Positions 5,389 through 25,535 are shown, counted from the first letter of the stretch. The stretch is 25,716 bases of DNA from Abditibacteriaceae bacterium (GCA_031372065.1 JANMKN010000007.1:1-25716), one strand, 5' to 3'. Numbers and translations are program-made. The notes: generated by a model not told the origin, from the sequence alone.

Positions 5389-6171
5389 TCAACTGTTCGG
5401 CAAACTATCCAGCAACGTTTTTAAGCGCGTGCGCAGGTCGCTGTCGCCGTGAATCACGCAAAGGCGAACGTGTAAGTCGTCGGGATATTCGGCGATAAGC
5501 GTTCCTTTGCTTCTCGCTTTGCCGTTGACCGGCCACGTTTGAAAAACAGTTTTGATTCGTTGCGCTAAAGCTGGATTGGAAGCCGTTTTCCTTTCGAGGC
5601 GCAGCAGAATGTCCATCGTTTTCAGATTACGCGCTCCTGCTAATTCATCGTCCCATTTATCGCCAAAGAGTAGACGGCCATAATCCAACAAATCGCAAAA
5701 GGAACCCACACATTCAACTTTACCGACAGTGAGCGAAAGTAAATGGGCTGAGTGAAAAAAACCGTTGCGTTGTTCACGGCGGGCGCTCATACGAGTGAGT
5801 AAAGGTTCAATGTCAGTTAAACGAGCGTCACTTTGCAAAACCTCGCGCACGTCATCTTGGATACGATGATAATTCTTAAATCTGTCACGAGGCACTTCCT
5901 TTTCCAACCAATCCACGACATCTTGATTAAATGTGCCGTCGTCTTTGACTTTCTGAATCACAGCTTGCAAAGCGACTTGATGGCGCCGTTGCTCGCGGTC
6001 AAGTAAGTCTGACCATGCGACAACATTTTGTTGAAGCCACAGTTTGGAAGTGAGTTCGGTGTAATCGTCGCACAGCACAAAAGCGGCTTTGAGATATTCT
6101 TCTTCGGTGCGCCCGGTGTAATAAATCTCAACGCCGGTGCAAATGTCGCGCAGTAGCGCTCGCAAACTCAT
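5389..6171 (-). CDS. Putative HEPN-domain protein (RxxxxH ribonuclease motif)
   Basis: N-terminal helix AAFVLCDDYTELTSK and the motif RREQRNGFFH (5752-5769). GGAGG SD, and ATGA overlap with the S-subunit stop codon. Confidence 0.65.
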   Translation of the reverse strand: MSLRALLRDICTGVEIYYTGRTEEEYLKAAFVLCDDYTELTSKLWLQQNVVAWSDLLDREQRRHQVALQAVIQKVKDDGTFNQDVVDWLEKEVPRDRFKNYHRIQDDVREVLQSDARLTDIEPLLTRMSARREQRNGFFHSAHLLSLTVGKVECVGSFCDLLDYGRLLFGDKWDDELAGARNLKTMDILLRLERKTASNPALAQRIKTVFQTWPVNGKARSKGTLIAEYPDDLHVRLCVIHGDSDLRTRLKTLLDSLPNS

Positions 6172-7616
6172 GCTGTTTCACCTCCCAATAACCGCGCCTC
6201 GAATCGTGCTTTCGCGGCTTCCCAATCGTGCGCCGCCTCGTCGCGCAACGCCCGCGCCCGCTCACGCCGCGTGCGCACTTCGGCGGCGATGGATTCTTGA
6301 ATGGCTTTGTCGGGAAGAGGAATGATAAGTTTCTCTAACTCGCCTTGAGTGATTGCTGGATAGTTGCCCCCGCTACTGCGGAAAAACATTTGGCGTAGGC
6401 AAAGGCTGCTGCGGAGAATACTCCATAAATACGCTTTGTTGATTCTCTCGTCAACGCGACGAATCACAGAGAAACCAGTGGAGGCAATAGCACCATCAAG
6501 GTCAGTCTCAATTTGAGCAATGGCACCGTAGTGTGGGCGCGTTGTGCTGATGATAATATCTCCGTCTCTCACTTGCATTCTTGCCCTACTTGGCGCTTCT
6601 GAGACTGCCACATTTTCGGCGGTAGCACTGCCTGTTTTTGGATTTACGCCGCTAATTTCGATGTATCGGAATGTCACTGCGTCTGATGATTTTTCAGGTT
6701 GCCACGTTTCCGAAGAGAAAACAGCTAAATTTTCTAATCGTTCATGAGGAATGCTTTTCACCAAACTTGATAATGTAGTGAACTCCGGCGAGTGGAAATC
6801 GGTATCTAAGCGAGAATTCACTTGGCCCAATTTCACGCCAAAAGCCGCGCGTTTTTCGGTTTTCGGGGCTTGCAAGTCGAGTTTTGCCAGCAGCCAGCCG
6901 TCCAAACCCGACAGCAGCGCGTCGGCTTGTGCCAACTTATCGCACCGCGCTGTGCGCGCCGCTTCCAATTCGTTGACTAATTCGCGTTGGATTTCGAGGG
7001 AAGGCAACGGAATTAAAATCTCTGAAATTTCCTCAACATTGAGGTTGTTTTGAGCTACACCTTTTCCAATGAACTCAATCTGCGTTCGGGACACCTGAGA
7101 ATCGACAAACCAGCAGAAAAACTCTTTGCTAATTAGCTCCTCATCAATGCGAAGATTAATCAATGCAGAATTGAGATTCGCTTCCTTGATTTCTGGTGGA
7201 ATTATGGCAACAGTGCCCAAATTATCTTTTGTGCCGCTGACAGCAAAGATTAAATCTCCCGGCTTTGATTTCGTGCGCGCCAATGTTTTCTCATGAACTT
7301 CGCGCGTAATATGCTTCACTTCAGAAACATCAACTGTGTGATTCGTGAGGTTATTTACTCGTAGAAAGTAAACGCCGTTCTCTGTATCTTCTGTGTAAAA
7401 ACCTTCTCTTGGGCCATCTCCTCGATTCCAGCTCTTAATGAGGTTCCCAATCGGCTGAATTTTTGTGTGAGTCTTCAGTCTCTCAATGATTGCTTGATAC
7501 TCTGGGGAACTAAAATTTACATCCAAGCGCCGATTTACATCCCCCCGCCGCACGGCGAAGCGCGTAACTTCGCCGGGAGCGGGGCTTAGACGAAAAAAGG
7601 CGCGCGATCGTGACAA
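6168..7616 (-). CDS. hsdS: HsdS-like restriction-modification specificity subunit with two TRDs; probably entered by -1 frameshift from the upstream RM ORF
   Basis: Two TRD+helix repeats (GDLIFAVSGT..IPLPSLEIQRELV; GDIIISTTRP..IPLPDKAIQESIA). Repeated lead-in motif FAVRRGDVNRRLDVNFSSPEY / FGVKLGQVNSRLDTDFHSPEF. No ATG in roughly the first 340 codons. Confidence 0.9.
   Translation of the reverse strand: MSRSRAFFRLSPAPGEVTRFAVRRGDVNRRLDVNFSSPEYQAIIERLKTHTKIQPIGNLIKSWNRGDGPREGFYTEDTENGVYFLRVNNLTNHTVDVSEVKHITREVHEKTLARTKSKPGDLIFAVSGTKDNLGTVAIIPPEIKEANLNSALINLRIDEELISKEFFCWFVDSQVSRTQIEFIGKGVAQNNLNVEEISEILIPLPSLEIQRELVNELEAARTARCDKLAQADALLSGLDGWLLAKLDLQAPKTEKRAAFGVKLGQVNSRLDTDFHSPEFTTLSSLVKSIPHERLENLAVFSSETWQPEKSSDAVTFRYIEISGVNPKTGSATAENVAVSEAPSRARMQVRDGDIIISTTRPHYGAIAQIETDLDGAIASTGFSVIRRVDERINKAYLWSILRSSLCLRQMFFRSSGGNYPAITQGELEKLIIPLPDKAIQESIAAEVRTRRERARALRDEAAHDWEAAKARFEARLLGGETA
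7543..7598 (-). promoter_or_regulatory. Candidate programmed -1 ribosomal frameshift signal (slippery heptamer plus downstream hairpin)
   Basis: The mRNA has U_UUU_UUC at 7598-7592, a 7-nt spacer GUCUAAG containing the RM stop, then the hairpin CCCCGC-UCC-CGGCGAAG-(UUACGCG)-CUUCGCCG-UGCG-GCGGGG. Confidence 0.7.
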
Positions 7617-9589
7617 AACCTCTGATATTCGCCCAATAAACCGCTGCCGGGCACCACTTCGCGCGGGCCTTCAAACTTTTCGCTGCCTTTGTATTCGTAA
7701 CGAATGCGCGCATCGAATAAATCGCAGCGCATGGTTTCCGTCCATGAGCCGTCGGCGTGGTCTTCGCGGTCAATCAGCTTCCATGTTTTGCGCCCTGTGG
7801 CATCGTAGCCGATGTTTTCGGGCGCGGCCATAAAAATCTCTTCGTCGTCGCTCGGCACTTCGTTTTCTTCGCGCTTTTCCAAAAATACGATGCTGCTTTT
7901 GACGCCCGCTCCATAGTGGGCAAACGCCATTTGCGGCAGCGAAATCACGGCGCGCAAACGAAAAGCGCGCAGCAGATAATCGCGCACATAAGCGAGGCTC
8001 GAATTGGTCAGAATGCCGTCCGGCAACACCACAACGGCGCGTCCGGCGGGGCGCAAGAACTGGTGAATGCGCTCTAAAAAGAGAATCTCGGTTTTCTGAT
8101 TCTTGCGCGGTTTGCGATTGCCTTTGGCATCTTCGTTTTCGGCCAGTTCAGGATACAGTTCCGATAAATGCGGCTTTTCGCTAAAGGCCACCTGCGCCCC
8201 AAACGGCGGATTGGTCAGAATCAAATCAAACGAAGCCGGCGTGAAACCGGCCTTGATAACATCGAACCGCGCCCACACTTCGAGCGCGTCTTCGCCGATG
8301 ACATTGGTGTGCCCGTCATCGTGCAAAATCATGTTCATCTTCGCCACGCGCGCGATTTCGTCGTTGATTTCAATGCCGAATAATTGGTTTTGCGCGAACG
8401 AATGCCAGTAGTTGTAATGCTTGACCGCTTCGGACGGGTCGGTTTCCCAATCGGAAAAATGTTCGTTGGCTTCGCGGCGAATATGGTCGAGCGCATGAAG
8501 CAAAAAGCCGCCGCTGCCACAGGCCGGGTCCAGCACACGGTCATGCACGCTGGGCGGAAACAGTTCCACGGCGAATTGAATCACTTCGCGCGGCGTGAAA
8601 TATTGCCCGAAATTGCCTTTGAAAAAGCCGTCCATGAAACGCTCGAACGCCACGCCTTTGGTATCGAGTTCGGTCTTCTCCAAGTTGATGCCCTGCAAGT
8701 GAGAAACAACCGGCGAAAGCATCATATCGGGCACTTTGATGGTTTCGTCGAAAACGCCTGCATCGCGTTCGCGCTTGCGATAAGTGTCGTAAAGAGCGCG
8801 AATGCGCACCGCCAACTGCGAGGGCGTTTCGTGGGTGCGAATCTGAAATTCGTAAGGCTGGTTTTTGCGGGTTTCTTTTTCGTCGCAGGTTTTGGCAAAA
8901 ATCAATTTGCACATTTCGCCAAAAGCTGCCGGAGGCGATAGTTTGCCACCGCCCCACAGCGTGTCGTGGCTTTTCTTCATGGCGGCAATGAGGGTTTCTT
9001 TGGAAACCGGCTGAATATCGAGATTGCCGCCCCGCGCAAACTTATATTCCGGCACTTTGCCATAAGCCACCGGCAAGTCGGAAACGATATTATCGTTGCG
9101 CTCCAACACCGGATATTTATCTGTGCAATCGAAAAAGCGCTCAGTGGCACCAGCCACCACGCCAACATAAGTGGCACGAAATTTATGGGCGTGCCCGTTG
9201 CCAAACGCTTGTTCAATAGCTTGGGTAAATTCGGCAGGCGAAATTTTTTCTTTCTTACATTCGATAACGATAAAGGGGTCTTTGCGCGCGTCATCTTTGA
9301 AAATCACGATGTCGGCGGCATCTTTGGGCGTGCGGTCAGGCACCGAAATTTCAATGCCAATGCGCTGCGGTGGATAATGATAATGCTCAATGAGCTTCGC
9401 CCAAAATTCGGCGCGCACCTGTTCTTCGGGGTCGTCGTAAATTTCTTTATGGCCGCTCGGAAAATAAGTAATCACGCGACGGCCTTTATCATCATAAGCC
9501 AAATTCGCCAGTTTTTTGGCGATGACTTTTTCTAAAAACGAACCGGGTAGCGGCACCAGTTTTTGCGGGTCGAAAGGTTTATTGCTCAT
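7586..9589 (-). CDS. Fused endonuclease (HsdR_N-type PD-(D/E)xK) / N6-adenine DNA methyltransferase (type IIB/IIG-like RM subunit)
   Basis: N-terminal PEEQVR..ADIVIF..IECKK nuclease domain; MTase motifs GQYFTPR, LDPACGSGGFL, ILTNPPFG. ATG at 9589 was chosen because 9625 lies inside the upstream terminator. Confidence 0.92.
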   Translation of the reverse strand: MSNKPFDPQKLVPLPGSFLEKVIAKKLANLAYDDKGRRVITYFPSGHKEIYDDPEEQVRAEFWAKLIEHYHYPPQRIGIEISVPDRTPKDAADIVIFKDDARKDPFIVIECKKEKISPAEFTQAIEQAFGNGHAHKFRATYVGVVAGATERFFDCTDKYPVLERNDNIVSDLPVAYGKVPEYKFARGGNLDIQPVSKETLIAAMKKSHDTLWGGGKLSPPAAFGEMCKLIFAKTCDEKETRKNQPYEFQIRTHETPSQLAVRIRALYDTYRKRERDAGVFDETIKVPDMMLSPVVSHLQGINLEKTELDTKGVAFERFMDGFFKGNFGQYFTPREVIQFAVELFPPSVHDRVLDPACGSGGFLLHALDHIRREANEHFSDWETDPSEAVKHYNYWHSFAQNQLFGIEINDEIARVAKMNMILHDDGHTNVIGEDALEVWARFDVIKAGFTPASFDLILTNPPFGAQVAFSEKPHLSELYPELAENEDAKGNRKPRKNQKTEILFLERIHQFLRPAGRAVVVLPDGILTNSSLAYVRDYLLRAFRLRAVISLPQMAFAHYGAGVKSSIVFLEKREENEVPSDDEEIFMAAPENIGYDATGRKTWKLIDREDHADGSWTETMRCDLFDARIRYEYKGSEKFEGPREVVPGSGLLGEYQRFCHDRAPFFV

Positions 9590-9640: not shown

Positions 9641-10327
9641 TTACGGTGTTTGACCTCCTTGCGCATTTTGCGCGTGTTCGGGTTCGGCTTCGATGTGCGA
9701 GGCGGTGACCCATTGTTGCAAGGCGTCGGCATCGGCAGTCTCGGCGTCGGGGCCGAAGATGTTGTTGACGATGGAGCGCAACGAACGCAGTTCGCGCACC
9801 GTGATGCGCGTTAGGCGGTCCATTTCTTTGGTGGCTCCCGAACTCGATTGGTCGCCCGCATCTTGATGGTCTTCGGCATCGTTGGCTTGCTGCGCGACGG
9901 TGGAAAGTTTGGTCAGGAAATTGGCTTCCATGCCGTAATCTATGAAAAGCTGCGTGTGTGGCGCGGCTTTTTGGGCATAGGTCGTGGCAGCGGTCAGCCA
10001 TGTTTGCAAGTTGCGCCCGGCGGGTAACGGAAAATCATCGGCGATGTCGGGCAATTCGTCATCGAAGTCAATCGAATCGGCGGTGTCGTGGATGCGCTTT
10101 ATCAATTTGCGCAACGCCTCAAAAGCGCGATTGCTGGCCCCAACAGCGCCGTGCGCGCTGTTGCCGCCGCCCGCTTGCTGCGAATCCAATTGCTTGATGC
10201 GCGTTGTGTTGGCGGCGATGGTCGCCAGTTTTTGCTGCCCTTTGGCGGTTAGTTGGTCGCCCCAGTTGCCGCCCCAAACAATAACCACATCAAATGCGTT
10301 CACTCTACGGCGAAGAAAGTCCTTCAT
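9641..10327 (-). CDS. Hypothetical all-helical protein (228 aa), apparently two tandem helical-bundle repeats
   Basis: ATG at 10327 (MKDFLRRRVNAF) with a TAGGAG SD. The longer 288-aa ORF only reads through the repeat array. The halves share a pattern (QQAGGGNSAHGAVGASNRAFEALRKLIKRI / HQDAGDQSSSGATKEMDRLTRITVRELRSL). Confidence 0.8.
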   Translation of the reverse strand: MKDFLRRRVNAFDVVIVWGGNWGDQLTAKGQQKLATIAANTTRIKQLDSQQAGGGNSAHGAVGASNRAFEALRKLIKRIHDTADSIDFDDELPDIADDFPLPAGRNLQTWLTAATTYAQKAAPHTQLFIDYGMEANFLTKLSTVAQQANDAEDHQDAGDQSSSGATKEMDRLTRITVRELRSLRSIVNNIFGPDAETADADALQQWVTASHIEAEPEHAQNAQGGQTP

Positions 10328-10380
10328 TCTTTTGCTCCTAAAAAGGGATTTACAATGCCTATTATGCCAATTTAAGAAGC

Positions 10381-10670
10381 AAGTTTCGAGAGGCAAAACG
10401 CCTTTTCCAGTGACAAGTAAGCGTCCGGCGCGCAAAATAAGCCGTTCTGTCATCCGAAGAAGCCGTTCTGCGCTTCGCACAACCCGTTCTGCTCTCTGGC
10501 AGAGCATTTCGCCGCTTGATAAGACATTTTGCCACTTGGCAACGAGTTCTTCTATATGAAAAGTAGGATTTGAGCATTCAAACAGAACGTTCTACCACTT
10601 GATAAGACGTTCTGCGACTTGACGGAGCGTTCTGCCGTTTGACGAAGCCATTCGTCTATATGACAAGTAG
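10381..10670. repeat. Degenerate tandem array A, about 14 units of 20-21 bp, core CGTTCTGc.rCTTGa
   Basis: CGTTCT cores at 10443, 10464, 10485 (period 21) and 10588, 10608, 10628 (period 20); degenerate cores at 10422, 10505, 10525, 10545, 10649. Confidence 0.8.
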
Positions 10671-24896: not shown

Positions 24897-25535
24897 ATGG
24901 GGCAATTTCCGCGTGACCGAGCCAAAATCTTGGAGTTGGCTCAAAAAATTGGAATCGGCATGAGTGATCCCAATCATGTCAGTGCGTTTACCGCTTCGCC
25001 GGTTTCAGCGACGGAAATCAGCGAGGCCATAGACGCGACCACAGTAACCGCAGCGACTCGTCACCTTGCGCAACTGGCGTTAAACGATGCCATCGCCGCC
25101 GATCAAAACGCCGTTACCGAGCTTGCCCTGCTGATGCAGCAAGTCATCGGCTATGCACGCGGCAAGAAGAATAGCCAGCCCAAGATTCTGAAATGGATTG
25201 ATGTCGAAACCGCGCCACATAATAAATTGCCGCCCGGTTCATGTCGTGGTTTTAAGGAAGTATCGCGCACGTCCGACACGCTGTTTTTGAGTTGGAAAGG
25301 CCCGAAGTTTGGCACCAATATCAGCGACGGCGAGGGGGGCCGCGCCCGCATTTATGAAGTGGTGTGGCGCGAAAATGCCGCTTCCGAATGGCACGTCGCT
25401 GCGACAGTTCTCGAAAACAAAGCGCAAATTGCGTTGGCCTTGTTGGGCGACAGCAAAGCCATTTCAATCACCGTGCGCGCCGTCAACAAACAAGGCACCG
25501 GCCCGATTTCGCCGCCGATTACGCTGTCTTTGTGA
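24897..25535 (+). CDS. Hypothetical protein: N-terminal helical bundle plus C-terminal fibronectin type III-like domain
   Basis: AGGAGA SD; FN3-type pattern LFLSWKGP..YEVVWR..W..ITVRAVNKQGTGPISPP; no signal peptide. Confidence 0.82.
   Translation: MGQFPRDRAKILELAQKIGIGMSDPNHVSAFTASPVSATEISEAIDATTVTAATRHLAQLALNDAIAADQNAVTELALLMQQVIGYARGKKNSQPKILKWIDVETAPHNKLPPGSCRGFKEVSRTSDTLFLSWKGPKFGTNISDGEGGRARIYEVVWRENAASEWHVAATVLENKAQIALALLGDSKAISITVRAVNKQGTGPISPPITLSL

Follow-up and report, generated by a model that had tools for sequence, protein, structure and literature searches.

Type IIB restriction-modification enzymes such as BsaXI and BcgI are built from a chain that carries nuclease and methyltransferase (MTase) domains (RM) and a specificity subunit (S) with two target recognition domains (TRDs), and their composition is given as (RM)2S in the available passages of two papers (PMC11997821, PMC4081073). 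Other enzymes are single chains, either with all parts together (RMS; AloI, TstI) or with RM and one TRD (HaeIV). TstI is described as a homotetramer with its domains in a 1:1:1 ratio (PMC4027205), and the resulting imbalance of RMS enzymes is 'not entirely understood' according to PMC4081073. A locus of Abditibacteriaceae bacterium (GCA_031372065.1, JANMKN010000007.1, positions 1-25716; this whole stretch of 25,716 nucleotides is called the window) resembles BsaXI and BcgI in that it encodes a nuclease-MTase chain and an S with two TRDs. In those enzymes, however, S is a separate protein, whereas here no start of S is conserved and S is expected solely as part of a fusion with one RM chain; in addition, the RM comprises 667 amino acids and that of BsaXI 916. 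The trans-frame product of the locus would have the RMS layout of AloI and TstI, and the wider family holds RM chains with two TRDs as well as, like HaeIV, with one. Free RM made at this locus would restore a 2:1 ratio.

It is very likely that programmed -1 ribosomal frameshifting yields both RM and an RM-S fusion at this locus, and with them a Type IIB-like (RM)2S enzyme, as an earlier note made from this DNA alone had proposed. S would be formed only as RM-S fusion by a -1 shift at the heptamer U_UUU_UUC, with a hairpin that begins 6-7 nt further on as the predicted stimulator of the slip. Ribosomes that do not shift would stop one codon further on and release the 667-aa RM. In ribosomes that slip, both tRNA-Phe would re-pair on UUU UUU and 476 more codons would be read, which would give a trans-frame chain of 664 + 476 = 1140 amino acids. 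One RM together with one RM-S would give the composition (RM)2S. The sequences themselves show the layout, its conservation in DNA and in RNA structure, the absence of a conserved S start and a relative with reciprocal wiring; from there we infer the slip itself, an efficiency perhaps approaching 50%, the assembly of the heterodimer and two-sided cleavage.

The RM gene (7586..9589, minus strand) encodes an N-terminal PD-(D/E)xK-type nuclease and a gamma-class N6-adenine MTase (Pfam HSDR_N_2, residues 54-122; N6_Mtase, residues 309-595). Among 43 RM homologues the residues D90, E110, N460, P461 and F463 were invariant, K112 and P462 nearly so, and the top sequence match in the PDB was RM.BsaXI (E 5.5e-37). 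The S coding region (6168..7598, minus strand; 476 aa counted from the heptamer) has no credible start of its own. Its frame, -1 relative to RM, is open from 7670 to the stop at 6170-6168, and its profile matches the S subunits of EcoKI and BsaXI (S.BsaXI). Two stretches of Methylase_S as well as an alignment of 21 S frames revealed two TRDs, and the region is colinear with the C-terminal part of a natural fusion (locus L050, E 2e-44). The predicted trans-frame product could be aligned continuously with natural in-frame fusions, and likewise with an RM followed by an S started with ATG. With nuclease and MTase in one chain and a two-TRD S, the locus corresponds to Type IIB at the domain level. 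The best PADLOC models for the locus carry the label Type I, which requires a separate HsdR with a helicase motor; here the nuclease is fused to the MTase and no gene of the size of hsdR flanks the locus. No motor-sized open reading frame (ORF) was present beside the locus in the window, and neither HsdR nor ResIII occurred among the best Pfam matches shown for 45 of 54 neighbouring ORFs, in flanks of up to about 3 kb.

The 3' end of the RM gene reads CCT TTT TTC GTC TAA. The slippery heptamer (7592..7598, minus strand) is in frame with the last two phenylalanine codons, and the RM stop in the 0 frame follows one codon later (7586..7588, minus strand). The earlier note had reported this end, the heptamer and the S frame at -1, and all of them are present. 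Of the 2889 stop-to-stop ORFs of at least 300 amino acids in the genome itself, RM is the only one in which a single codon separates this heptamer from the stop. One tRNA-Phe, with the anticodon GAA, was found in the genome. For comparison, loci were gathered by a profile search with seed patterns taken from the MTase core, the junction being excluded, and from genomes of relatives. This gave 29 loci with an RM ending in FF[VA]; after removal of the duplicates L016 and L017, 27 were left, of which L031 and L032 share a junction. In all 27 distinct loci T_TTT_TT[C/T] lies ten bases before the stop, which has an equal position throughout. The first phenylalanine codon is TTT in 27/27, at TTT shares of 0.09-0.85 among the phenylalanine codons of these genes. 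Likewise, the preceding codon ends in T in each of them (CCT 22, TCT 3, CTT 2), with CCT making up 0-0.48 of the proline codons. Two further loci, L112 and L118, show the same heptamer pattern. As far as codon use indicates, the heptamer is kept through synonymous choices across the FF[VA] loci, and an in-frame X_XXY_YYZ heptamer with conserved synonymous sites joins two ORFs in every one of the 27.

Downstream of the stop, a hairpin is predicted at about 7542..7585 (minus strand). It folds with a centroid energy of -31.3 kcal/mol and a minimum free energy of -32.3 kcal/mol (z -2.86; 1 of 200 shuffled sequences was as good) and starts 6-7 nt past the heptamer. In 25 slip loci, i.e. loci with the candidate slip site, that had enough sequence (L028 and L032 were excluded), the median z of the 61 nt following the stop was -3.1, and 21 of these values were below -2. 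In the same family, 29 RM/S junctions of the ordinary kind had a median of -0.06, with one value below -2, and four control-offset windows of the slip loci had medians near 0. The consensus outer stem of 6 bp, with a 5' arm of the type [GC]CCCCG and a 3' arm CGGGG[GC], begins 6 nt past the heptamer and was paired to 96.7%, and slid controls reached 44-63%. Its first pair is G-C in 12 and C-G in 9 sequences, and the fifth pair shows one swap to U-A. The spacer between heptamer and structure measures 4-7 nt in the 25 loci, mostly 6. A structure at the 5-9 nt distance expected of a stimulator is thus conserved with compensatory change. The hairpin that the earlier note had drawn at 7543-7584, with an 8-bp inner and a 6-bp outer stem, was recovered in its outer pairs, which are conserved; the inner stem differs in sequence between homologues and nevertheless folds at each locus. 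A search of Rfam gave no meaningful match. In our assessment, the junction is a real and conserved recoding site that is probably functional.

The S frame offers little from which a separate S could be started. Its first ATG lies 1010 nt past the RM stop, after about 340 codons; a TTG at 7616 has GAGG just 2 nt upstream, and the following GTG (7553) lies inside the hairpin, all of which agrees with the earlier description. An S-frame ATG within -30 to +20 of the RM stop occurred in 5 of 26 slip loci versus 28 of 29 controls. These numbers bear on the possibility that S is a separate protein, which would arise through translational coupling, or through re-initiation at a near-cognate codon close to the RM stop, with FF being a protein motif and the hairpin serving coupling or mRNA stability. 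Coupling is the norm at hsdM/hsdS junctions (PMC3510504), and the nearby ATG of the control relatives, the five ATGA overlaps among the 26 slip loci, which could give free S, as well as a GTG at +23 to +38 in seven loci, speak for it and against a fusion as the only form of S. However, the five cases are overlaps of an A with TGA, and their near relatives have an A followed by TAA (GCATAA in L022 and L040); as the ATG is absent in these close relatives, the S start is not conserved. Nine of the 26 loci have no ATG, GTG or TTG at all between -46 and +48. A conserved S start at the RM stop, on which coupling would depend, was therefore not found. Moreover, the motif FF alone does not account for TTT or for the T-ending preceding codon in 27 of 27 loci, which counts against coupling, and L050 retains heptamer and hairpin within one in-frame ORF that needs no S start. 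Taken together, coupling is an improbable explanation. A further junction, that of L010, lacks a T-heptamer; the -1 frame there continues for at least 438 codons, and its first ATG comes at +389.

Just as doubtful is a true fusion that results from slippage during transcription, by which one U would be added in the T6 run. One extra T would join RM and S in frame, T7 runs were read in three loci and a CTT precedes the heptamer in one more, and the dnaX gene of T. thermophilus uses slippage of this kind (PMC5009743). The same review gives a threshold of 9 A or T, however, and the runs observed here measure 6-7. Furthermore, the conserved structure follows the run on the 3' side, with the spacing of a ribosomal stimulator, and RNA polymerase would not yet have made it when copying the run.

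The -1 offset is a recurrent trait of the relatives. Of the 27 loci, 21 have a -1 frame that continues for 432-486 codons; in four it reaches the contig end and in two it is broken early. In the latter two, L003 (from genome G017) and L032, an intact junction is followed after 35-45 codons by the break in S; in G017 RM also appears to be in two pieces. In a tree of 92 RM cores 26 of the slip loci fell into one clade of 29 leaves (support 0.82). Two loci with a more distant RM outside this clade, L011 and L058, also possess a T-heptamer, a strong hairpin, a long -1 frame and no early ATG, so that the signal may have a deep origin or may have emerged repeatedly. The best 120 of 7100 passing RM homologues (8000 scored) were all unfused and comprised 524-674 amino acids, even though proteins of up to 1168 amino acids were eligible, and 117 of the 120 end in FF[VAL]. 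We take the named homologues among these 120 to belong to Planctomycetota, Cyanobacteria, Chloroflexota, Nitrospirota and Acidobacteriota. Cultured hosts with an RM that ends in FFV include Nostoc sp. C117 and Pseudanabaena mucicola. The earlier note had stated that homologues which are all in-frame fusions, or which have independent S starts, would speak against frameshifting; instead, the best homologues are unfused, no S start is conserved, and the alignment of the junctions brought out a conserved -1 overlap, heptamer and hairpin with compensatory pairs.

The note had likewise raised an assembly error hiding a T7 run. The T6 run is spanned without a gap by a contig of run X2 (7517-7816, same study) and by a contig of run X4 (7534-7900, a diverged relative from another study); as assembled contigs were compared, rare variants would stay hidden in this check. 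The X4 contig aligned over RM and hairpin and diverged from the start of TRD1 (7534), as an exchange of TRDs immediately 3' of the cassette of heptamer, stop and hairpin would predict. As far as DNA can tell, none of the refuting conditions named in the note applied. We consider it hardly credible that the locus results from an assembly error, is a pseudogene or represents an in-frame fusion under phase variation in its off state, and assembly error and phase variation were rejected, since, despite in-frame RM-S fusions in the wider family and an S broken further on in 2 of 27 loci (L003, L032), independent contigs show T6 without gaps, the -1 offset recurs in 27/27 diverged loci with long S frames, and 0/120 of the best homologues are fused.

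The reverse arrangement was found in a fused relative. Locus L050 encodes an in-frame RM-S of 1072 amino acids whose junction GAT TTT TTC GTT AAA keeps T_TTT_TTC; the same outer stem follows (-24.5 kcal/mol), and three codons on a stop ends the -1 frame. At L050 a slip would yield free RM although the gene itself is fused, which mirrors the arrangement in the window. For the wider fused family, the junction region of a relative served as query, and the 120 proteins listed were evaluated. FF stands at the junction in 74 of these, and in 72 of the 74 the residue two places past FF is K, N, E, S or D (background 0.32-0.39), each of which can form a -1 stop. Sorted by tail length, junction FF was present in 62 of 83 two-TRD chains versus 2 of 15 one-TRD chains; eight proteins lacked the anchor motif and 14 fell into other length classes. 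Of the two-TRD chains without FF, 16 of 21 read [ND]-F-[PS]-[NDE] at the place of the junction, which would fit a site A_AAU_UUU. The idea of a 2:1 stoichiometry put forward in the earlier note gains support from the reciprocal fusion L050 and from the apparent loss of the junction signature in one-TRD chains. Several Microcystis proteins (P0121, P0126, P0332-P0341) are RM-S fusions of about 1200 amino acids with FF at the junction, and one member of this cluster, P0333 (720 aa), ends exactly at the junction FF; both wirings may thus occur within the genus Microcystis.

We regard it as slightly favoured that frameshifting acts as a stoichiometry switch throughout this family of apparently motor-less RM enzymes, by which loci annotated as 'RM + S' and many annotated as 'RMS' would make one and the same RM/RM-S heterodimer through mirror-image wirings of a single U_UUU_UUC-hairpin cassette, the cassette being dropped in one-TRD chains that are already balanced. 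If this is true, the imbalance between catalytic and specificity parts of single-chain Type IIB-like enzymes is solved in this family. The question left by PMC4081073, how RMS chains with one catalytic module serve two half-sites, would become directly testable.

Beside the start codons discussed above, several points weigh against frameshifting at the locus or in the family. The grouping of loci by their FF ending is partly circular; the hairpin and the choice of synonymous codons alone do not depend on it. The loci are related to one another, and the swap between G-C and C-G in the outer stem may be a single event, and probably only two compensatory events are independent. Three of the 29 leaves of the clade (L020, L043, L029) are without the cassette; two have divergent tails and one is an in-frame chain of RM and one TRD. 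This latter type (L029/L030), nested in the clade of the slip loci, has lost heptamer and hairpin. A conserved 5' Shine-Dalgarno-like stimulator was not detected, with pairing energies ranging from +2.4 to -10.3 kcal/mol over 26 loci and -2.2 kcal/mol at the locus itself; such an internal stimulator is a feature of dnaX- and IS-type sites and is optional. In E. coli, ribosomes shift less readily at U_UUU_UUC than at A_AAA_AAG, so the efficiency may be far below 50%, and no paper measuring the efficiency of U_UUU_UUC was found in the literature searched. The reciprocal wiring was seen at the DNA level in one locus, L050, and the remainder is suggestive, being at the protein level, dependent on kinship and obtained with a query that itself bears FF; the preference for K, N, E, D or S past FF could also be one of the protein. 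Finally, a -1 candidate in a C-REase fusion, although a different system, gave no product on testing (Liang 2013, PMC3850674).

The closest mechanistic parallel is the dnaX gene with its products tau and gamma. There, too, a heptamer is followed by a 3' stem-loop, and a short and a long product share a common N-terminus. For dnaX, wirings with the stop in the -1 frame and with the stop in the 0 frame have both been described, with a reversal of roles when shifting is near 50% (Atkins 2016, PMC5009743), and L050 and the present locus would parallel the two. The differences are the site (A_AAA_AAG in dnaX, U_UUU_UUC here), the lack of a conserved 5' Shine-Dalgarno sequence here and the unrelated proteins; moreover, the case described here is known from sequence alone. 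A precedent for the product is an engineered HsdM-HsdS fusion of EcoKI, which forms an active enzyme but in vitro depends on additional M (Roberts et al. 2012, PMC3510504); in the EcoKI structure the C-terminus of M is close to the N-terminus of S (PMC3510504). That fusion was made by mutagenesis, however, and belongs to a Type I system, which has a motor and in nature relies on translational coupling of its genes; no programmed frameshift is involved.

The literature searched, which did not extend to most subscription papers or to the notes of REBASE, yielded no account of a programmed frameshift that joins RM to S. The word 'frameshift' was absent from the passages available of PMC4081073, PMC4027205 and PMC11997821, and in those of PMC6158711 it refers to the engineered fusion. 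The accessible parts of PMC5009743 show no case from restriction-modification systems, and in the parts searched of Antonov 2013 (PMC3711429) DNA methylases appear only in the context of phase variation or coupling. What would be new is a programmed frameshift for restriction-modification subunits; the dnaX-like mechanism and the Type IIB-like build are known.

Few cases of programmed frameshifting in cellular bacterial genes are known. If frameshifting takes place here, a widespread family of defence enzymes is mis-annotated, with false S starts and with fused genes that conceal a second product. The ribosome would then determine the proportion of the subunits, and a switch of one base would lead from one to another of the split, half-fused and fused RM architectures. 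It would also follow how such enzymes must be cloned for activity.

A pattern scan of viral contigs yielded 45 loci (L120-L164) with T_TTT_TTC, a stop and a GC stem, two of which were RM/S loci already in the set. In 13 other viral loci that were scanned, the upstream ORF was Portal_Mu (13/13) and the downstream ORF Phage_Mu_F (12/13), and several of the MuF loci carry toxin-like C-terminal domains. That an unrelated pair of genes, portal and MuF, shows the same layout is more in keeping with a general -1 signal than with a protein motif of RM. Three of the 45 loci (L128, L143, L152) are fused in frame and have a short -1 frame; two viral scans gave no further in-frame RM-S fusion with the heptamer. 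In plasmids and phages a tblastn search detected distant relatives only, none above 60% identity, and two records that were inspected lacked the cassette; a blastn search of plasmids with the junction gave no match. A scan of genome contigs with a single protein returned just two loci, both duplicates of loci already in the set. Among the sequencing runs listed, none with RNA data for the locus was found. A scan for promoters and terminators showed nothing beyond chance, and no terminator-like site at the hairpin.

Outside the proposed frameshift, the locus contains an accessory gene of 260 amino acids (5389..6171, minus strand), which an ATGA overlap couples to the S stop. It was without a match in Pfam or PADLOC, and a homologue with 36% identity lies directly after S in locus L026. 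Its R-N-x-x-x-H motif presumably resembles that of HEPN RNases, and its Atlas neighbours point to HEPN only weakly (0.81-0.82). The gene may be an RM-linked backup defence gene. Directly upstream of RM lies an uncharacterised gene (9641-10507, minus strand) with no Pfam or PADLOC match, and a second uncharacterised gene (24897-25535, plus strand) showed a weak match to fn3.

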